DNA from: an uncultured Bacilli bacterium
GTDB taxonomy: Bacteria; Bacillota_I; Bacilli_A; RF39; UBA660
Assembly: GCA_934130545.1 (NCBI GenBank)
Contig: CAKOYD010000002.1
Location: forward strand, 194,209 to 258,208
Direction: 5' to 3'
Length of the DNA: 64,000 nucleotides
Position numbers and translations under genes: made by a program. The notes beneath the pieces were generated by a model. The model saw only the letters and a program-made list of their open reading frames with translations, ran no database searches and was not told the DNA's origin. How positions within the stretch are numbered: the stretch's first letter is position 1; every line of letters begins with the position of its first letter. Of this stretch, positions 16,684 to 40,451 are shown one piece after another.

Positions 16684-17652
16684 TTATTTTAAAGCATCAA
16701 TTAGTTCTTCTTTTTTTAATTTTGAATAACCTTTAATTTCTTTCTTCTTAGCAAGTTCACGAAGTTCGCTTACTGTTAGAATAGTTAAGTCAATCTTTGT
16801 TTCATTATTAACTGCTACTTCTGGCTTTTCAACAACAGTTTCTGTTTTAACTTCTTTTCTTACTTTTTTGTCAAATTTCTTTTCGTTATTCTTTTCACTT
16901 TTGTCATTATTTCTTTCAAAGTTTCTTACTTGTTTTTTAGATTCATCTTCAGTTACATAGTCAACTACTTCTTTTCCAGTAGCTTCGGCGATAGCATTTG
17001 TTAAAGCTCCTAATACTACTTTAATTGATTTAACAGCATCATCATTTCCTGGTATTACATAATCAATATTATCAGGATCACAGTTAGTATCAATTAATCC
17101 AAATACTGGAATACCTAACTTATTAGCTTCTCTAATAGCATTATATTCCTTAGTTGAATCTACAATAATAACTGCTTGTGGTAATTTATCCATATCTCTA
17201 ATACCACATAAGTTCTTATTTAACTTATCATACTCTTTCTTTAAATCAATTACTTCTTTTTTAGGTAATTTTTCAAAAGTTCCGTCTTCTTCCATCTTTT
17301 CGATTTCTGCTAAACGATAAACTCTCTTTCTTATTGTTCTGAAATTAGTTAATGTTCCACCTAACCATCTTTCAGTCATATAATACATACCTGTTCTAGT
17401 TGCTTCTTCAATACAAACATCAGATGCTTGTTTCTTAGTACCTACATATAGTACCTTTCCACCATCTTCTACGATTTTTTTTAAAGCATTGTATGCTCTT
17501 TCAAGTGAATCTTGTGTTTTTTGTAAGTCCATGATATAAATATCATCTCTTGTAGAGTAAATATACTCTTTCATTTTTGGATTCCATCTTTTAGTCTGAT
17601 GACCAAATTGAACTCCACCTTCTAGTAAATAACTCATTGCTACTACTGACAT
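16684..17652 (-). CDS. rpsB: 30S ribosomal protein S2 with a C-terminal extension ending in a Rho_N/SAP-like helix-hairpin-helix
   Basis: S2 core ([22 protein letters not shown]…). Likely start ATG at 17652 with AAGGAGG RBS; the ORF track extends to 17682. About 80 extra C-terminal residues end in [34 protein letters not shown], which resembles the Rho N-terminal domain signature. Confidence 0.9.
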
Positions 17653-17848
17653 ATTTTTTCCTCCTTTTGTTTTTTCTTCCAAATATCTCTTCTCTATATA
17701 CCACTTATTTATAAATAAGCACTAGATATATAAATCAATATTTGTGCTAATTTAAGAAAAGCCATTAATAATATATCATAAAATAGTCAATAATACAAAT
17801 GTTTTTTATTATAAATTAAAAATATTTGTATCTCCTTACCAAAATAGA

Positions 17849-18422: not shown

Positions 18423-20195
18423 TTATTTAACTATATATGGTTCTGTAGCAGTACCTAATCCTCCCCCTGTCACCGTTATCCCTTGTTTAAGTGAAACTAC
18501 AGGGCGCCCACCGAGCGAACCCGTAACGCTGTTTTCGGCGACAATCCCAGAGGAACGCAAATCGATCTCGCCAGCACCCCAGTCGTAGAAGAGAGACGGA
18601 GAAAAGGACCAATTATAAAAACCATTATACAAGTAATATGATGTATTTGTTTGCCATACCACTCCACCTGCAAAAGCCATTTCTTCCGCTGTAATCATTC
18701 CTACTGGATATGTTAACTCGCCATTACCATTATCCGTACTAACTGTAAACTTATCTATTTGTCTTGGACATACTAAACTTAACTTTCTATTTAATAGCCT
18801 TTGAACACTGCCAAAATATAACCACTTATTATAGTTACTGTAATCTTTATTCCAACCACTAGTACTTAAATTATAATATGTTCTATCATTACAAAATCCA
18901 GTATCTTCTAATTGTAATGTATAACTAGTCATATTAGTTTTATACCAAGTATCTATCTTTACTTTAGCATTTGATTCTTTAACATTAATGTCACCTTCAA
19001 ACATTTCATTTAGTAAATCAACTGGTTTCTTACCATTCGTTAGAGTGAAATAGTAAGTATATTTGTCTTCACTATAAATAATGTGTATATAGTATACACT
19101 TTGACAACTAGTACCTGAACTAAAGCAAGTATAATGATATTTGTCAGTATAGTTACTATATTCAGTACCCCAGCTACTTGGATCAGTTAATGTTTTAGTA
19201 TCTTTTAGTGTATATTTCCCTGTACTTGCATCGTACGTAGCATCATTTCCAAACACTATTGAACCTGTTAATGTTGTTATATCTTTGCTTGATGCAGTAT
19301 ATACCGTATTATACATGTATCCAACATATGCCGGAGAATTATAATTTGTATTAAATTGAATATTACCTATCGTAGTAGCACTACCTGTATTATTACATTG
19401 TCCATTAGAAGGTACACCATTATATATTAACTTAACCCCACCTGTTTCTGTTGTTCTTATTATTTTCCAGCAGAAGTTGGCAAATAATACATTATTATCT
19501 ACTGCTCCACGATAGTAATATACTGGTATATTACCTTCGGTATTAGTTGTCATATAGATGCCATTAGTACTACTAGCATCAGATGTTTTACTAAAATCAA
19601 TAGTTGTAGTAGTATCGGCATTATTTTTTATATAATCATATAATGGCTCTCCACCAATTAATACAGTACCATCACTATCTTCTACATCTTTAACTGCTAT
19701 ACCACTAGAAGTTAAATTAGCATTAAACTTCTTACCTAATATATCAGAAGAAGATACAGTATCAGGTATCCATAATTTAATAGTAAATGTTCTAGAAGAA
19801 CCTGGATTTAATATAACATCTCTAATTATTATATTACTATCACTAGACAATATAGCAGGGTTTTCCCCATCCATAGATACTTTAATGAAACTACTATCTA
19901 AAGTACTATTACTCATAGGTTCTAATATAACATTAAACTTATATGCTAAAGTACCTACATTGGTAATAGTAATAGTAGTTTCATTAGAATTCATACCATC
20001 AGTATCACTCATAGGATAAACATTATTTAAGTTTATACTTACATTACTATAACTTAATTTTAATGTACCAGTACTATAATTTTGTACAATAGAACTTACT
20101 TCACTAGTAAATAATGCATAAGTTTCTTTACCAATAGATACAAATAACATTAAAACAATTAATATTAACAATAATTTTTTATTTCTACTATTCAT
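18423..20195 (-). CDS. large secreted protein with a SipW-cognate (TasA/camelysin-type) signal peptide; 3' end compositionally atypical
   Basis: 590 aa. N-terminus MNSRNKKLLLILIVLMLFVSIGKETYALFTSEVSS matches the SipW-cognate signal class (…GTYAYFSDTE…). S/T/N/Y-rich body. The last ~60 codons are GC-rich with atypical codons. Confidence 0.7.
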   Translation of the reverse strand: MNSRNKKLLLILIVLMLFVSIGKETYALFTSEVSSIVQNYSTGTLKLSYSNVSINLNNVYPMSDTDGMNSNETTITITNVGTLAYKFNVILEPMSNSTLDSSFIKVSMDGENPAILSSDSNIIIRDVILNPGSSRTFTIKLWIPDTVSSSDILGKKFNANLTSSGIAVKDVEDSDGTVLIGGEPLYDYIKNNADTTTTIDFSKTSDASSTNGIYMTTNTEGNIPVYYYRGAVDNNVLFANFCWKIIRTTETGGVKLIYNGVPSNGQCNNTGSATTIGNIQFNTNYNSPAYVGYMYNTVYTASSKDITTLTGSIVFGNDATYDASTGKYTLKDTKTLTDPSSWGTEYSNYTDKYHYTCFSSGTSCQSVYYIHIIYSEDKYTYYFTLTNGKKPVDLLNEMFEGDINVKESNAKVKIDTWYKTNMTSYTLQLEDTGFCNDRTYYNLSTSGWNKDYSNYNKWLYFGSVQRLLNRKLSLVCPRQIDKFTVSTDNGNGELTYPVGMITAEEMAFAGGVVWQTNTSYYLYNGFYNWSFSPSLFYDWGAGEIDLRSSGIVAENSVTGSLGGRPVVSLKQGITVTGGGLGTATEPYIVK

Positions 20196-20223
20196 AAACG
20201 TACAATCCTTTCCACAATAAAAA

Positions 20224-20270
20224 TACTATGACAAAAAGAGTCTAATTACTTAAACTCTACTGTCATAGTA
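20224..20270 (-). terminator. terminator-like or attenuator hairpin ~25 nt upstream of the 590-aa gene start
   Basis: On the minus strand an inner hairpin GAGUUUAAG-UAA-UUAGACUC is nested in a perfect 10-bp outer stem (UACUAUGACA…UGUCAUAGUA) and followed by UUUUUAUUG. The inner hairpin plus U-run is conserved upstream of the 36611..40201 gene. Confidence 0.55.
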
Positions 20271-20295
20271 TTTATTATTTAAACAAACAACTGTA

Positions 20296-20355
20296 TTATT
20301 TAGCCCCACCCCCAAGTAAACTTGGAGTTAACTTATATATTACCATTTTATTCAT
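20296..20355 (-). CDS. putative leader uORF (MNKMVIYKLTPSLLGGGAK) spanning the G tract
   Basis: ATG lies 9 nt after an AAAGGAGUU Shine-Dalgarno-like element. The RBS-to-ATG spacing is conserved in the paralogous leader at 40244..40348. It may be non-coding because the RBS is predicted to pair in a conserved stem. Confidence 0.3.
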   Translation of the reverse strand: MNKMVIYKLTPSLLGGGAK

Positions 20356-20441
20356 AATTTTTAACTCCTTTCTAGCAAACATTTGTTTACTGTACTATTT
20401 ACTTGAGAAGAATTCTTGTTTGCTCTTCTTATTTTAAATTA

Positions 20442-20470
20442 ATTATAAACTAAATTATCTCTATATGCAA
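20442..20470 (-). promoter_or_regulatory. sigma-A promoter driving leader A and the 590-aa gene
   Basis: Minus strand TTGCAT-17 nt-TATAAT, about 80 nt upstream of the uORF. Immediately downstream of the XRE regulator gene. Confidence 0.6.
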
Positions 20471-20498
20471 GATATTTTAATAATAAAATTATATTAAA

Positions 20499-20771
20499 TT
20501 ATTCTTCATCATTAAAAAACTCTTTAATATCTATATCTAGTGCCTCAGCAATTCTACCTAATACTGAAATAGTAAAATGTTTATTTCTCTTATCATTTTC
20601 TATATCACTAATATATTCTCTTGATAAATCAGTCATATCTGCTAAATCTTGTTGCGTTAAATTATTACTAGCGCGATACTTTTTAATATTCTTTCTAATA
20701 ATATTATAATAGTAATTATCATTATTAATATATTTCTTAGGCTTAATAGTTTTATACAACATATACTTCAC
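20499..20771 (-). CDS. XRE-family helix-turn-helix transcriptional regulator
   Basis: 90 aa. LTQQDLADMTDLSREYISDIENDKRNKHFTISVLGRIAEALDI is a Cro/C1-type HTH. The true start may be internal. Confidence 0.7.
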   Translation of the reverse strand: MKYMLYKTIKPKKYINNDNYYYNIIRKNIKKYRASNNLTQQDLADMTDLSREYISDIENDKRNKHFTISVLGRIAEALDIDIKEFFNDEE

Positions 20772-35096: not shown

Positions 35097-36023
35097 TCAT
35101 TCCTTTATTCTTTCTATTACTCTAAGTTTAGCACTTCTTGCACGGTTATTATTAGCAAGTTCTTCTTCACTAGGTGTTATACCTTTTTCTATTACTTTAT
35201 AAGATGGTAAATATTCATCCGGTATAAATGGTAAACTCTTTAACTTATCATCTACTTCACTATACTTTTTAAATATATTCTTAACTACCTTATCCTCTAA
35301 TGAATGAAAAGTAATAACTGATATTCTTCCACCTACATTAAGTAATTCTAATGAACTAACTAATGCCTTTTCTAAAACTTCTAATTCCTTATTTACTTCT
35401 ATTCTAATAGCTTGAAAAGTACGACGTGCCGGATGCGTATTTCTCATTGCTTTCATTGGCATCCCACTCTTAATAATATCCACTAATTCTAAAGTAGTTT
35501 CTATCTTTTTATTATTACGATATTCCACTATCTTCTTAGCAATACTATAAGCATACTTTTCTTCACCATAATCTCTTATTATTCTAGTTAAATCACTAAG
35601 TGAATATTCATTAACTACATTATAAGCAGAAATTGGATTACTCCTATCCATTCTCATATCTAATTTAGCATCATTATGAAAACTAAATCCACGATCTGCT
35701 TCATCTAATTGTACACTAGAAACTCCTAAGTCAAATAATATTCCATCTACTCTCTCTACACCACGTTTATGTAATTCTTCTTTTATATTAGCAAAATTAC
35801 TTTTAATAACACAATAGTTATTACTTATTTGACTTAATTTTACATTACTATACTCAATAGCCGTATCATCTTGATCAATACCATATAAGAACCCAGTATC
35901 TAATTTACTCAAAATAACACTACTATGTCCAGCATAACCCAAGGTAGCATCAACATAAATTCCATCTTTTTTAACGTTTAAACAATTAATTGATTCATTA
36001 AGTAATACACTTACATGTTTCAT
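35097..36023 (-). CDS. rsmH: 16S rRNA (cytosine1402-N4)-methyltransferase RsmH (MraW)
   Basis: 308 aa. SAM-binding motifs (DATLGYAGHS, FDLGVSS). Confidence 0.93.
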   Translation of the reverse strand: MKHVSVLLNESINCLNVKKDGIYVDATLGYAGHSSVILSKLDTGFLYGIDQDDTAIEYSNVKLSQISNNYCVIKSNFANIKEELHKRGVERVDGILFDLGVSSVQLDEADRGFSFHNDAKLDMRMDRSNPISAYNVVNEYSLSDLTRIIRDYGEEKYAYSIAKKIVEYRNNKKIETTLELVDIIKSGMPMKAMRNTHPARRTFQAIRIEVNKELEVLEKALVSSLELLNVGGRISVITFHSLEDKVVKNIFKKYSEVDDKLKSLPFIPDEYLPSYKVIEKGITPSEEELANNNRARSAKLRVIERIKE

Positions 36024-36463
36024 AACCCAAAATCATCCCCATTATCAAATAAATTTTCTGCAATTTCATCTAGTTTATCAAAGTTATCCTGCATTAAATT
36101 ATCATAATAATCTAATGCCCAAATTTCTAGACGATCATTAACCCCAATGATAACGCATTCTTTTTTAATTTTAGCATATTCAAATAAAGATGTAGGTATG
36201 TTGATTCTACCCTGCTTATCTAATTCACATACAGTTGCACTACTTAAGAAGAATCTAGTGAATGTTCTAGCATCTTTCTTAGTAAATGGAAGCATCTTTA
36301 ACTTAGAAATAATCTTATTCCATTCATTCATTGGATAAACAAATAAACATCCATCTAATCCTTTAGTAAGAATAAAAGTATCTCCAATATCCTCTCTAAA
36401 CTTGGAAGGTATAATTAATCTTTTCTTCTCATCAATATTATGACGATATTCTCCAATTAACAT
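36020..36463 (-). CDS. mraZ: transcriptional regulator MraZ
   Basis: 147 aa with duplicated DxxxR MraZ motifs. First gene of the dcw cluster. Confidence 0.9.
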   Translation of the reverse strand: MLIGEYRHNIDEKKRLIIPSKFREDIGDTFILTKGLDGCLFVYPMNEWNKIISKLKMLPFTKKDARTFTRFFLSSATVCELDKQGRINIPTSLFEYAKIKKECVIIGVNDRLEIWALDYYDNLMQDNFDKLDEIAENLFDNGDDFGL

Positions 36464-36610
36464 AACTTATCCCCCACTTTCTTCCACTTCGTGCCACTCT
36501 ACAATATTATAATATACTCTTTTTTATCTTTTGTAAACAATATTACTAAAACTTTACATTAATTTTACCAAATAAATAACTCATCTCTATTTTAGAAATG
36601 AGTTATTTAT

Positions 36611-39600
36611 CTATTGCCAACAATAACTATCGTTTAATTTAGTATATCCACTAGCACATGAATATGTTGTTACTGTTGTTCCTGATGTATATATTTTACA
36701 TGACTTATTTACAAGGTATCCACTTGAGCAAGAATAAGCATATGAACAATTATTACTACTAAGAGTATATCCAGATGGGCAATTTGCACCACCAGAATTA
36801 GCACAACTATATTGTGTTACCCTTCCAGTACTAGTTCGCTTACAATAAAAACTTCCTGTAAGATGACTATTAGCACTAGTATAATAATAACATCCGCCAC
36901 TATCTTGTAGATTACTACCACAATCTTCATAAGAACTTGCTGTTGTATTCGCTACTGTACCACTACATGTATTAGTATTACCAGCTCCATCTTTTACATA
37001 GAAAGTATATGTCTTTGCTCCTGTTATTGTACCAGTACTACTATTACTGCCACTATATGATGAACTCCAACCATAGTATGCTAGACCACTTCCTCCTTCA
37101 TCAGAATATGTGGCAGTTATTGTTGTACCACTAGCACTTAATGTACATTTTGGTCTAATTGTATCGATAATAATCCAGTGAGCATATAACGTTGTATCTG
37201 ATGTTTTATCCCAATCTCTTACACTTTGACCACTACTATTATAATATTGTGTTCCACCACTTGCTGAGTCATAATAACCGGCAAATGTATATCCAGTCAT
37301 AGTAGGTAAAGTTATATCAGGATAACTACCTTGTTTAGTACCATGAACAATAGTAGTTGAGTCAGTACCTCCTGTACCACCATTCTTATTGAATGTTATA
37401 GTATATACTTTAGCTGTCCAATAAGCATATAGTGTATGATCACTAGCATTGGATACTATAGTATCACTTGTTACTCTAGTACCTGTACCATTTTCTCCCG
37501 TATACCAACCGCCAAATGAATAACCTGCTTTTATTGGTGTTGGCATATCACCATATTTTTGACTTTGTTGAACAGTTCTGTTTATACTAGTCAGAATTAT
37601 TCTAGCTGCTCCATTACCAGTCTTAACATAATTACTAACAGAATTCCCGGAAATATTAGTTGTAGAATATGTTTTAGTACTTGTTGCATCAGAAGTTGCG
37701 CAATTATAACAATACATATATTTATCAGTAAGCAGTGAATTGCCAATATAACCAGAACCACCTCCGCCAGGAGCAATGTGTCCACTTCGTGATCCACCAT
37801 AAAAACCACCGCCTCCGCCAGTAGTAGCCCAATCACTTCCACCGCCTTGGCCGAATGACCCAGTAATAACACCACTATTTACTTCGCTTGCTCTATTACA
37901 ATCACTTGTTATTTTACCTCCGGCGGTCTGAGTTCCGCCAAGGCCTACACACCATTGATTATCTTCAACACTGGATTCATCTCCAGAATTACCTATGTAT
38001 CCACCACCGGAACCACCACGTAATCCATATGTTCCAACATTTTCACCATAGTAAGATCCACCGCCTCCGCCAGAAACAATTAATATATTTGATAGGCTAG
38101 ATGATAATGATGATAGTAATCCAGACTTTGTAGCAATATGAGTCGCTCCACCGCCGGAACCAAATGATCTATTGCAGCATGCCTGGCCTCCTGTTGAACC
38201 ACCACCATTATATCCACCCACAATATTCTCTAACGTTCCAGACGAGGTTCTGCTTCCCTGGCCTCCAACATTAACATATAAAATATCACCTGAGTTTAAT
38301 GTAGTCGTTCCTTGTGAATATCCCCCATAACCACCAACAGTACCATCTATTGTTGTTCCTCCTTGAGCACCCCATGTTTCAAGTTTATATGTTCCAGTAT
38401 ATGGGACTGTGTAAATATTTTCTTTGGCCTCTGTAAATGTTGAAATAACATTATAACTTCCACCGGCAACATCAAAAGTTACATTTACAGTTTTATTCCA
38501 TTTAGCATACAAAGTATGATTATTGGCAATAGTTATTACTGTATTCTCATCTACTTTAGTACCTGCCCCATTCTCACCAGTATACCAACCACCGAAAGTA
38601 TATCCTTCTCTAGTTGGGGTTGGTAATTCACCATATTTGTCTTTATAAGTTACATTATAGTTGGTGTCACTTATTAATGTAACTCTAGCTGCTCCATCAC
38701 CGCTTTTAGCGTAATCAGTAGTTGGTGTCGCTGAAGCATTGGTAGTTGTATATGTCTTAGTATCGGTAGCATCAGATGTTGTACAATTATAGCAATACAT
38801 ATATTTATTAGCAAGTAATGAATTGCCTATGTAACTGGATCCACCGCCACCGCCACCATTCCTAGCAGAACCGCCAGCTCCACCGTATAGACCACCGCCT
38901 CCACCGCCAGCTCCGTGCTCAAAGCTTGCTTCGTATCCACCTTGGCCTCCTAATCCAAATTGTCCAACTGTACCAGTAACACTTCCAGAGCCAAGGGTTC
39001 CTCCGGAGGTTTGTGTACCGCCACCGCCACCGCCTTGGAATGAACTACTATTGTGTCCACCGGTGTTACCCTGTATCCCACCGCCTGAACCACCTATCTC
39101 ATTTGCATTAAATACTCCAGTACCACCGCCGCCGCCTGAAACTATCAGGATACTTGATAGAGAGGATGATAAAGACGACAATAAACCTGTCTTTGTTGCA
39201 ATATGGGTAGCACCACCCCCAGTTCCTGCACTGTAATTTGCATTTCCACCACCATTATATCCACCAGTAGTAAATGTACTTTCAGCATTAGAACTTACGC
39301 CTTGACCTCCGACATTAAGATATAAAATATCTCCTTTTTTTAATGAAACAACTCCAGTAGAGTAACTACCATAACCAATTTGAGTTGTAGAATATTGGCC
39401 GCCTTGGGCTCCCCAAGTTTCTAATTTATAATCACCAGTATATGTTACTTTGTAAGTATACTCTTGCGGTTGGGTGTATGTAACAGCAAAATTACCTCCT
39501 GCTAAGTCTAAACTAACTGTTATATTTTTAGGTTCAAACACTACTTCACAATTAACATTACTTGTTATATTAGATATAGTTAAGATATTATTAGATACTG

Positions 39601-40201
39601 TTCCTTCACATGTTGTTGATTTATATTGATAACCATCATTAGGTGCTAAAGTATATTTAACTGTACCATTCTTAGTAGATAATTTAATATTAGGTTTTAC
39701 TTTACCGTAAGTATTATTATTAGATTTAACTATTGCTTTATAGTATACATCTTTATTTATGCCAGTACTATTGCTAGGTAATTCTAATATTTCTTTTTCA
39801 AAACCTACTATATCTTTAATACTTACTGTTGTATCAGTACTACTATTATTTTGAATAAATACTTTAACTAGATTAGTATTCTTACTATTAAGTACTCCAC
39901 TAGTATCTGTATCACTTATATTAATTATACTAATATTAGAGTTTACTCCTTCTAAATAAAGTAGATATGACATATTAAATTCATTAGGATTACTTATTTT
40001 AATATCTACTATTTTACTATCATAACTAGGTATTAATATATCTCTATTAGTTCTATCACCTAAAACTATATTAAATAGATAATCTGCTTTACTACTATTA
40101 CCTTCGGTAATGGTAGTATCTATTGCAAATGTTCCTATTAGAGAAATAACTCCTATTATAAATATCAAAAATAATCCTATATATATTGTCCTTTTTTTCA
40201 T
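36611..40201 (-). CDS. giant secreted glycine-rich surface protein: signal peptide, duplicated Gly-rich module with Flg_new (Listeria-Bacteroides) repeats, and a Cys-rich C-terminal module shared with the pilin-like protein
   Basis: ~1196 aa from ATG 40201 (AGGTGG RBS; the ORF track uses GTG at 40213). N-terminal signal MKKRTIYIGLFLIFIIGVISLIG. Two ~345-aa tandem copies (YKLETWGAQGG…GGATHIATK.GLLSSLSSSLS.ILIVSGGGGG…YMYCYNC…GY.FGGWYTGENG.GT.V…HTLYA.W). A third Flg_new repeat. C-terminal ~200 aa Cys-rich tail. Confidence 0.8.
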   Translation of the reverse strand: MKKRTIYIGLFLIFIIGVISLIGTFAIDTTITEGNSSKADYLFNIVLGDRTNRDILIPSYDSKIVDIKISNPNEFNMSYLLYLEGVNSNISIINISDTDTSGVLNSKNTNLVKVFIQNNSSTDTTVSIKDIVGFEKEILELPSNSTGINKDVYYKAIVKSNNNTYGKVKPNIKLSTKNGTVKYTLAPNDGYQYKSTTCEGTVSNNILTISNITSNVNCEVVFEPKNITVSLDLAGGNFAVTYTQPQEYTYKVTYTGDYKLETWGAQGGQYSTTQIGYGSYSTGVVSLKKGDILYLNVGGQGVSSNAESTFTTGGYNGGGNANYSAGTGGGATHIATKTGLLSSLSSSLSSILIVSGGGGGTGVFNANEIGGSGGGIQGNTGGHNSSSFQGGGGGGTQTSGGTLGSGSVTGTVGQFGLGGQGGYEASFEHGAGGGGGGLYGGAGGSARNGGGGGGSSYIGNSLLANKYMYCYNCTTSDATDTKTYTTTNASATPTTDYAKSGDGAARVTLISDTNYNVTYKDKYGELPTPTREGYTFGGWYTGENGAGTKVDENTVITIANNHTLYAKWNKTVNVTFDVAGGSYNVISTFTEAKENIYTVPYTGTYKLETWGAQGGTTIDGTVGGYGGYSQGTTTLNSGDILYVNVGGQGSRTSSGTLENIVGGYNGGGSTGGQACCNRSFGSGGGATHIATKSGLLSSLSSSLSNILIVSGGGGGSYYGENVGTYGLRGGSGGGYIGNSGDESSVEDNQWCVGLGGTQTAGGKITSDCNRASEVNSGVITGSFGQGGGSDWATTGGGGGFYGGSRSGHIAPGGGGSGYIGNSLLTDKYMYCYNCATSDATSTKTYSTTNISGNSVSNYVKTGNGAARIILTSINRTVQQSQKYGDMPTPIKAGYSFGGWYTGENGTGTRVTSDTIVSNASDHTLYAYWTAKVYTITFNKNGGTGGTDSTTIVHGTKQGSYPDITLPTMTGYTFAGYYDSASGGTQYYNSSGQSVRDWDKTSDTTLYAHWIIIDTIRPKCTLSASGTTITATYSDEGGSGLAYYGWSSSYSGSNSSTGTITGAKTYTFYVKDGAGNTNTCSGTVANTTASSYEDCGSNLQDSGGCYYYTSANSHLTGSFYCKRTSTGRVTQYSCANSGGANCPSGYTLSSNNCSYAYSCSSGYLVNKSCKIYTSGTTVTTYSCASGYTKLNDSYCWQ
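37430..39500 (-). repeat. internal tandem duplication (~1.05-1.08 kb unit, two copies) inside the giant gene
   Basis: Nucleotide-level similarity at ~1082-bp offset (for example 37688-37770 versus 38770-38850). The protein shows two co-linear ~345-aa modules. Boundaries are approximate. Confidence 0.7.
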
Positions 40202-40225
40202 AATTAACACCACCTATAGACATGA

Positions 40226-40252
40226 CAAAAAGAGTCTAACTTCTTAAACTCC
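40226..40252 (-). terminator. terminator-like or attenuator hairpin ~25 nt upstream of the giant gene start
   Basis: Minus strand GGAGUUUAAG-AAG-UUAGACUC followed by UUUUUG. Conserved with the hairpin at 20238..20257. The uORF stop codon UAA lies inside the 5' arm. Confidence 0.5.
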
Positions 40253-40348
40253 TTCTTTATGCTTATAATAAAAACAAACAAATGTATTACTTATACCCCC
40301 CCCCCATGTAAACATAGAGTTAACGCTTTTTCTTAATATTTTATACAT
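40244..40348 (-). CDS. putative leader uORF (MYKILRKSVNSMFTWGGGISNTFVCFYYKHKEGV) spanning a G10 tract
   Basis: ATG lies 9 nt after AAAGGAGUU, the same geometry as the uORF at 20296..20355. The stop codon sits inside the terminator-like hairpin. May be non-coding. Confidence 0.3.
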   Translation of the reverse strand: MYKILRKSVNSMFTWGGGISNTFVCFYYKHKEGV

Positions 40349-40422
40349 AATCATTAACTCCTTTCTACATAGGAAGAAATACCTTGTTTGTTTATCTCCT
40401 ATCTTCTACTAAATTATAGCAC

Positions 40423-40451
40423 ACATCATTTTATTTGTCTATTAGTTAAAA
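40423..40451 (-). promoter_or_regulatory. sigma-A promoter with extended -10 driving leader B and the giant gene
   Basis: Minus strand TAGACA-17 nt-TGcTATAAT. Confidence 0.55.

Follow-up and report, generated by a model that had tools for sequence, protein, structure and literature searches.

The stretch of DNA analysed here, 64,000 nt of contig CAKOYD010000002.1 from an uncultured Bacilli bacterium (the window), contains two related leader sequences, copy A and copy B, each lying upstream of a gene for a predicted secreted protein. Copy B carries a homopolymer of 10 G's (G10; minus strand, 40305..40296, read as C10 on the plus strand) within a small upstream open reading frame (uORF), itself placed between a promoter and a terminator-like hairpin. 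Comparison with related leaders makes it very probable that this G tract is a selected, length-variable homopolymer. With less assurance, we favor the fuller reading that a hypermutable G run in a translated leader ORF, located between a promoter and an intrinsic terminator, constitutes an on/off switch for secreted proteins.

The tract is conspicuous in its surroundings. The overall GC content of the window is about 27% (windowed range 25-36%), and the G10 of copy B is its only run of 8 or more G's or C's, where shuffled sequences would lead one to expect 0.01. GC content reaches 0.355 at 36001-40000, against ~0.26-0.30 elsewhere, a rise that coincides with the glycine-rich gene of copy B. 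On the minus strand the sequence around the tract reads ...GTTAACTCTATGTTTACAT-GGGGGGGGGG-TATAAGTAATACATTTGTTTGTTT..., and at the corresponding place copy A has an interrupted counterpart, GGGGGTGGGG (20313..20304, minus strand). A preliminary description of this DNA had placed a G10 at 40296-40305 and an interrupted tract at 20304-20313, and both are present as it reported. The 2 leaders, both on the minus strand, are ~76% identical across ~300 nt and have in common a 48-49 nt pattern for which the expected number of chance matches is 0; an nhmmer profile returned A and B only, with no third copy in the window.

Relatives of these leaders were sought by exact-protein look-up of the RNase J that adjoins copy B and by a pattern scan of species-representative genomes, and extra copies came from look-ups of EF-P, S4, and the XRE regulator gene beside copy A. 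Pattern scanning alone was permissive: 15 of the 30 stretches from the species-representative genomes were chance matches (L014, for example, is an unrelated terminator), and a metagenome scan with the pattern GTTAACTCYAWGTTTACW proved too loose, with 7 genuine stretches out of 120 among the matches listed. In all, at least 39 leaders were recovered, of which at least 31 are distinct, from human-gut metagenomes and from metagenome-assembled genomes (MAGs) labelled uncultured Bacilli (CAKPNA01, CAKPJO01, UBA6414/DJPK01); a single MAG holds at least 10 copies. The order of parts is the same throughout the family: a promoter, a long hairpin whose pairings include that of the G tract with a pyrimidine tract, a uORF that has a strong Shine-Dalgarno sequence (SD) and runs across the tract, a terminator hairpin (strong in most copies), and then the gene for a secreted protein. 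The G tract occupies the same position in all 31 distinct leaders and is uninterrupted in 28 of them, at lengths of G7 to G13, the 3 interrupted tracts being G5TG4 (winA), G5AAG3 (L010), and G3TG6 (L149). Across 376 kb of related loci, 36 of the 37 runs of 8 or more G's or C's fall inside leaders. At the gathering threshold, Rfam finds two tRNAs and nothing else in the whole window, and a known RNA family such as a riboswitch or T-box was rejected as a candidate after permissive Rfam scans of both leaders gave sub-threshold chance hits or nothing.

The preliminary description had suggested comparing tract length between strains, and the length does differ at one and the same locus; the lengths given here are those of assembly consensus sequences. 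For copy B, G10 is the state of 7 contigs and G9 that of 3 (L003, L005, and L008), and because the G9 contigs share linked single-nucleotide polymorphisms (SNPs), the difference is heritable rather than random assembly error. At the EF-P locus, 2 contigs have G10 (L161 and L162) and 1 has G11 (L169), with 0/400 and 0/228 nt mismatched in the flanks. Tracts of G13 (L011) and G11 (L013) occur as well. The interrupted copy A tract, by contrast, does not vary among 5 samples (the window and L179-L182). The tract thus appears, by its sequence, to have two hallmarks of a homopolymeric contingency locus: an uninterrupted run of sufficient length for slippage (~7-8 nt or more), far above compositional expectation, and a length that is polymorphic between close strains with conserved flanks.

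Whatever its length, the tract is embedded in a reading frame that appears to be maintained. The uORF of copy B (40244..40348, minus strand) extends for 34 codons from an ATG at 40348-40346 to a UAA at 40246-40244 and encodes MYKILRKSVNSMFTWGGGISNTFVCFYYKHKEGV; its SD, GAAAGGAG, lies at 40365-40358. The G10 covers codons 15-18 (W-G-G-G), which places the tract in frame within the uORF as had been claimed, and 16 further codons lead from there to the UAA. Independent gene callers annotated this uORF as a 34-aa gene on 5 metagenome contigs. In 30 of 31 copies the SD GAAAGGAG is followed after 8-9 nt by an ATG. Between that ATG and the tract, in a stretch that varies in sequence, the ATG frame contains 0 stops in 414 codons, as against 73/395 and 77/389 in the other 2 frames, and from this we infer that the uORF is translated.

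Beyond the tract, the possible reading frames meet very different fates. Owing to the sequence [CT]AAATAATA that follows it, one or two frames (the short frames) end almost at once, their stops lying +1 to +6 from the tract. About half of the copies also have a mid frame, which runs to +21/22, where the helix P1 ends and the terminator stem has its foot. A single frame, the LONG frame, remains open in 28 of 30 copies for ~50-68 nt after the tract and stops within the terminator hairpin, either at the UAA of GAGUUUAAG in the 5' arm (GAGTTTAAG) or at the UAG of UUAGACUC in the 3' arm (TTAGACTC). Of the 31 copies, 29 have one or more frames without a stop between tract and hairpin, compared with 13.8 expected from shuffles, a count that is supportive and not decisive because the copies are related. 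Among the sampled genomes, 19 frame states are short, 3 mid, and 8 LONG. Copy B with G10 is in the LONG frame and its G9 relatives are in the short frame, bearing out the earlier claim that a change of a single G alters the frame of the uORF; the UAA of copy B was likewise found inside GAGUUUAAG, in the 5' arm of the terminator-like hairpin where the preliminary description had placed it. The uORF of copy A (20355-20296, minus strand; MNKMVIYKLTPSLLGGGAK) is in the short frame.

The leader transcripts are predicted to fold very stably, with minimum free energies (MFE) of -54.5 kcal/mol for copy B (z = -6.9) and -64.9 kcal/mol for copy A (z = -7.1). Leader B folds into a long imperfect hairpin (40272..40393, minus strand) and then a second one, the long hairpin appearing both in the MFE fold and in a consensus built from 19 copies. 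The outermost helix of the long hairpin, P1, pairs AAACAAACAA (40393-40384) with TTGTTTGTTT (40281-40272; RNA, UUGUUUGUUU); P2 pairs the pyrimidine tract TTTCTTCCT (40379-40371; RNA, UUUCUUCCU) with the G tract; P3 pairs ATGTA (40370-40366) with TACAT (40310-40306), in RNA AUGUA/UACAU; and P4, which encloses the uORF SD and start codon, pairs GGAGTTAA (40361-40354; RNA, GGAGUUAA) with TTAACTC (40323-40317; UUAACUC). By reading of the alignments, P3 changes on both of its sides, from AAGUA/UACUU in the paralogues to AUGUA/UACAU in copy B. From its start codon the uORF therefore passes through the P4 3' arm, P3, and the G tract. The tract had been described as the 3' arm of a hairpin, and it does pair with UUUCUUCCU in the MFE fold as well as in the 19-sequence consensus. 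This P2 helix is mostly G-U, with U-G the commonest pair at 5 of 8 positions of the consensus. In a genome of 27% GC, A-U pairs would be more stable than G-U and would be favored by mutation. GGG is also a minor codon, accounting for 10.6% of Gly codons in the other genes of the window and 2.9% (6/206) in the copy B gene itself. Since P2 is mostly G-U and GGG is a minor codon, selection appears to act on the G run rather than on the helix.

If the tract length mattered through RNA structure, then changing it should change the fold. The preliminary description had proposed that one G more or less would shift the register of the hairpin, and this part of the proposal did not survive: in silico variants from G7 to G13 share one architecture, with energies of -54.2 to -56.0 kcal/mol, the added G's entering an internal loop. 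Because the fold is unaffected by tract length, the tract is expected to act via the reading frame and not via structure. What stands of the earlier proposal, on the comparative data, is its core, a slipped-strand site whose length would set the uORF frame and, by way of the terminator, expression of the surface-protein gene behind it; an effect on hairpin register does not, and the terminator of copy B turns out to be the weakest of the family.

Across most of the family the terminator stem spans 20-22 bp (ACUACGAU...GAGUUUAAG-loop-UUAGACUC...AUCGUAGU), begins +22 to +41 after the tract, and leads into UUUUUU; its median energy is -26 kcal/mol, and we infer that this hairpin terminates transcription. 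Copy A has such a hairpin (20269-20225, minus strand; then UUUUU at 20223-20219; -25 to -28 kcal/mol). The hairpin of copy B (40216..40267, minus strand) consists of an inner stem of GAGTTTAA (40251-40244), a GAAG loop, and TTAGACTC (40239-40232), then TTTTT (40231-40227), in RNA GAGUUUAAG-GAAG-UUAGACUC-UUUUU, and is without the outer stem ACTACGAT/ATCGTAGT of the family and without the trailing U-run. When folds were constrained by a ribosome, the terminator persisted with the ribosome on the SD, on the early codons, on the tract, or at the short stop, and was lost only with the ribosome at the LONG stop, a pattern consistent with read-through that would depend on leader translation. These constrained folds contained no alternative antiterminator, the 2:3 duplex reaching -6.2 kcal/mol compared with ~-26 for the terminator. 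A classical amino-acid attenuator of the trp/his type was rejected on these grounds, neither the constrained folds nor the duplex energies giving an antiterminator pairing.

Upstream of these elements, promoter B (40413..40441, minus strand) has a -35 element TAGACA at 40441-40436, a 17-nt spacer, and an extended -10, TGcTATAAT (hexamer at 40418-40413), matching the consensus at 11 of 12 positions with TG preceding the -10, and would start transcription near 40406. The promoters of the paralogues are homologous to it (TTGCAT-17-TATAAT), including that of leader A (20219..20470, minus strand), with TTGCAT at 20470-20465, a 17-nt spacer, and TATAAT at 20447-20442. Phase variation through a promoter spacer was also considered and rejected: the tract is itself part of the transcript, ~100 nt past the -10 hexamer, and no convincing promoter spans it.

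These parts suggest a simple route from tract length to gene expression. Replication slippage that gains or loses a G would change the frame in which ribosomes exit the tract. In the short frame, the ribosome would leave the transcript ~20-40 nt before the terminator stem, the terminator would fold, and the gene would be OFF or low. In the LONG frame, the ribosome would cross the P1 3' arm and enter the terminator hairpin; if its arrival there prevents termination by blocking the hairpin, then polymerase would read through and the gene would be ON. The mid frame, available in about half of the copies, would release the ribosome at the foot of the terminator stem and perhaps give an intermediate level. 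On this model copy B would be in the ON frame with G10 and its G9 strain variants OFF, and copy A would be OFF and locked there by its G-to-T interruption. The P4 helix may confine uORF initiation to a co-transcriptional window. The assignment of the LONG frame to the ON state is slightly more likely than not. On the model, slippage in these tracts would be frequent and reversible within a population, and a change of tract length, with its clear predicted effect on the position of the uORF stop, would alter expression of the downstream gene by analogy with the pil1/pil3 leaders of Streptococcus gallolyticus (PMC3894217).

A number of observations weigh against this switch, or at least against a strong form of it. 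The frame counts of 28/30 and 29/31 are not independent, the leaders being closely related paralogues. In one copy, L023, the uORF start codon is replaced by ATA. P4 sequesters the uORF SD and could limit translation of the uORF. Covariation in the fold is weak, with compensatory changes in 3 of 45 pairs; because the copies are too alike for covariation, support for the fold is thermodynamic. The hairpin of copy B is the family's weakest, at -17.1 kcal/mol and with no clean U-run after the full stem, and a simple consensus terminator scan did not call it, so attenuation at this copy may be leaky and of small dynamic range. RNA polymerase in Bacillus-type Firmicutes can run ahead of the ribosome, and any antitermination that depends on a ribosome reaching the hairpin in time would be weakened accordingly. 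The tract state of copy B follows lineage, and therefore switching is not fast enough to randomise the assemblies; its dominant state is stable on lineage timescales, and a single slippage event could suffice to explain the G9/G10 difference there. Finally, an error in assembling the homopolymer could account for the single G10/G11 difference, whose flanks are identical.

An alternative which is unlikely but deserves weight is that the leader is a structural element only. In this case the G run would be the P2 strand of a conventional attenuator or of an mRNA-stabilising 5' hairpin, its length would drift neutrally, and a physiological signal would set expression. The tract is paired in every fold, and a fold that tolerates G7-G13 is one in which length change could be neutral; the lineage-linked tract state of copy B fits drift as well. 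Candidate signals, doubtful to the same degree, include ribosome pausing on rare GGG codons as a gauge of Gly-tRNA or translation capacity, for which 3-4 consecutive minor GGG codons could serve, and a protein or small RNA binding the conserved GAGTTTAAG/TTAGACTC hairpin. Both this inner hairpin and the SD hairpin show more sequence conservation than their pairing alone would demand. A pure-G, G-U-rich helix would, however, be an odd structural choice in an AT-rich genome, and neutral drift would not be expected to keep a stop-free LONG frame into the terminator in 28 of 30 copies or to keep the uORF open with 0 stops in 414 codons. Nor do the folds offer an antiterminator when a ribosome sits on the tract or on the early codons, and no Rfam family matches the leader.

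Less likely again is that the tract works by non-heritable slippage, with RNA polymerase stuttering or ribosomal ±1 frameshifting spreading ribosomes over all three frames in each cell, so that the leader would be a fixed rheostat of read-through in place of a heritable on/off switch; such a process could also add to slippage in DNA. The three-frame layout would be equally serviceable for this purpose, G GGG GGG is slippery for tRNA-Gly, and long homopolymers promote transcriptional slippage, although transcriptional slippage is best documented for A/T runs. The lengths of these tracts, however, differ at the DNA level between strains and between paralogues, and the interrupted tracts are fixed, which is the pattern expected of DNA slippage.

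It is very improbable that the variation is a sequencing or assembly artefact in which short-read homopolymer errors obscure a constant tract. Illumina sequencing is error-prone at G runs of 10 or more, and the G10/G11 pair with identical flanks rests on single assemblies, but the G9 of copy B recurs in three independent assemblies with the same SNPs, its G10 is found in seven, and paralogue lengths span 7-13 with the tract present in every assembly. A last suggestion, that the uORF encodes a functional small peptide (a double-glycine-type leader with a secreted signal peptide, the G run encoding Gly-Gly), takes encouragement from the many copies that read ...LT[LP]SLLGGG(G) and then ...NNTxVCL...ESLRD in the LONG frame, but is scarcely credible given that the post-tract 'peptide' is encoded by the P1 3' arm and the terminator, that GGG is a disfavoured codon, that no processing or transport genes were seen beside the leaders at the loci examined, and that the conserved GTTAACTC...GTTTAC falls in another frame in copy B and L130/L062 (…VNSMFTWGGG… vs …LTLSLLGGG… in most), so that conservation is at the level of nucleotides and not of peptide.

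One variant of the terminator bears on its pairing. In L168 (4440-4790), the 3' arm of the inner hairpin is TTAAGCTC instead of TTAGACTC; this AG-to-GA swap turns a U-A and a U-G pair into U-G and U-A and keeps 8 of 8 pairs, and may be taken, from its sequence, as a small piece of evidence for selection on inner-hairpin pairing.

The genes behind the leaders form a paralogous family of 500-1280 aa proteins with a TasA/SipW-like signal region, ...GGTFAYLTTS..ATNITQIKSGNLTMTIDGGGN.... The conserved N-terminus, M..K.LYI.L...SIIFL.IGGTFAYLTTS..ATNITQIKSGNLTMTIDGGGN..SFMP.KCTSEYAIK, is found for example at L161:4716-6542, in L011, L021, and L023, and in the window at 18423-20195. Proteins of the leader family that share it are otherwise without Pfam domains and divergent beyond it, and constitute an uncharacterised secreted-protein family of a gut commensal; the only NCBIfam match is a sub-threshold SipW-signal hit (TIGR04088) on L168. 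The copy A gene (18423..20195, minus strand) encodes a 590-aa protein with the N-terminus ...GKETYALFTSEVSS...STGTLKL, which by its sequence resembles a TasA/SipW-type signal peptide, and the whole protein has no Pfam hit. The copy B gene (36611..40201, minus strand) encodes a 1196-aa secreted or surface protein, likely starting at the ATG at 40201, preceded by GGTGGTG; its N-terminal segment is hydrophobic, the protein contains two ALK_LTK glycine-rich domains along with three Listeria-Bacteroides repeats, and the same length of 1196 aa is called on L002 and L006. Past the N-terminal region, the copy A and copy B proteins have no significant similarity to each other.

With so many copies in one genome, the switch proposed for copy B could be multiplied into a genome-wide 'phasome', in which at least 10 paralogous secreted-protein genes per lineage genome would each be independently OFF, possibly intermediate, or ON via their own poly-G attenuator. 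We regard this extension as an even proposition. If true, it would generate combinatorial surface variation with coding sequences untouched, and the slippage-tolerant G-U helix would let the RNA structure survive every switch.

Alleles that have lost the leader altogether are found at the EF-P/XRE locus, orthologous to window 20200-20500. L164 (4430-4575) is leaderless, with the same promoter and with uORF, G tract, and terminator missing; the junction, ...ctatgtaGAAAGGgtgtacttATG, appears to derive from a deletion between the two GAAAGG SDs, that of the uORF and that of the main gene. L160 (4430-4540) is also without a leader, and an L164-type deletion is probable there. These alleles have the sequence that would be expected if a negative module had been lost, and the gene would then be constitutive.

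Several neighbouring features of these loci are worth recording. Immediately upstream of leader A is a gene for an 87-aa XRE-family helix-turn-helix (HTH) regulator (window 20499-20762, minus strand), which is kept at the locus in all strains examined, with the downstream leader and surface gene varying (alleles of 494-611 aa); the XRE protein may be a locus-specific regulator or a mere neighbour. The copy B cassette, consisting of the leader and the 1196-aa gene (window 36611-40451), is accessory across strains. In L173-L175 it is replaced by an IS605-type OrfB/TnpB gene and a 66-aa ORF, with an identical S4 and the same RNase J-MraZ context, and in L178 it is absent, RNase J being followed directly by mraZ. 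The sole run of 8 or more G's or C's outside leaders in the 376 kb of related loci (L174:2083-2090) is a G8 on the gene strand just 5' of a TnpB/OrfB start codon, where it would act as the ribosome-binding site of that gene and could be another length-variable site. Elsewhere in the window (16684-17682, minus strand), ribosomal protein S2 carries a C-terminal Rho_N domain (Pfam E = 2.4e-08), an unusual fusion.

The host of these leaders is a common but uncultured gut commensal, and the model makes predictions that can be read from metagenomes. An SD and ATG, a G run, stops in some frames, and one open frame into a terminator together make a sequence signature for metagenome searches. Tract and terminator are separated by ~50 nt on a single transcript, close enough for paired metatranscriptome reads to connect the length of the one with read-through at the other. 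For annotators, the implication would be that the set of surface proteins displayed by a strain may depend on tract length in the leaders and not on the coding sequence.

How the proposed switch relates to known systems is best seen by taking its parts in turn. In the pyrBI operon of Escherichia coli, a ribosome on a leader ORF that overlaps the attenuator blocks the hairpin, premature leader stops cut read-through, and the input is a UTP-dependent pause of RNA polymerase. The leaders described here likewise have an ORF that runs into the terminator hairpin, but the input we propose is a heritable change of frame, and no antiterminator or metabolite-sensing feature was found in them. The cwpV gene of Clostridioides difficile undergoes surface-protein phase variation via a terminator in its 5' leader, which is controlled by site-specific DNA inversion and involves no uORF or homopolymer. 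What the two would have in common is a heritable surface-protein switch that works through an intrinsic terminator forming or being lost in the 5' leader.

The tract itself resembles the poly-G/C contingency loci of Campylobacter jejuni, Neisseria, and Haemophilus (PMC6321876, PMC2192423, PMC5953494). The G/C runs of ~8-13 nt found there occur nowhere else in the genome, accompany surface or variable genes, vary in length from strain to strain, and are stabilised by interrupting bases. Those tracts lie in the coding sequence of the structural gene, where they frameshift the protein, or in a promoter spacer, whereas the tract described here occupies an ORF of its own farther upstream and would act via termination, leaving the structural gene intact.

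The closest counterpart to the whole arrangement is found in the pil1 and pil3 pilus operons of Streptococcus gallolyticus (Danne et al. 2014, PLoS Pathog, PMC3894217), in which GCAGA repeats within a leader ORF shift the position of the leader stop. Expression is low when that stop falls 28 nt or more before the terminator and high when it falls at the hairpin or inside it, and the effect depends on translation (PMC3894217). The resemblance extends to each part: a promoter, a leader ORF with ribosome-binding site and ATG, a repeat whose unit is not a multiple of 3, a stem-loop terminator, and a gene for a surface structure. In both systems the number of repeats sets the frame and differs between strains, and a short and a long leader peptide have the same geometry with respect to the hairpin, so that the leader family has every structural feature of the pil1/pil3 mechanism, here read from sequence alone. 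The differences are equally clear. The repeat is a G homopolymer of 7-13 nt rather than 13-22 GCAGA units, and it doubles as a strand of a conserved long hairpin that encloses the uORF SD and start. At least 10 loci per genome encoding proteins with TasA/SipW-like signals stand in place of two sortase-pilus operons, a third (mid) state is possible, and the host is uncultured. No GCAGA repeats occur in these leaders and by inspection they are unrelated to the GCAGA-repeat leader; because there is no sequence similarity, an independent origin is indicated. Within the papers searched, the S. gallolyticus pili are the only documented case of phase variation that works through a leader peptide and a terminator, and searches for further cases led back to that paper or to ones that cite it. 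The phasome, if true, would thus be the first homopolymer-driven and the first multi-locus case, in a second known lineage for leader-peptide phase-variation attenuation. A mechanism built independently from a homopolymer in that second lineage, and placed before a whole family of secreted proteins, would make the pil1/pil3 arrangement a general design and not a curiosity.

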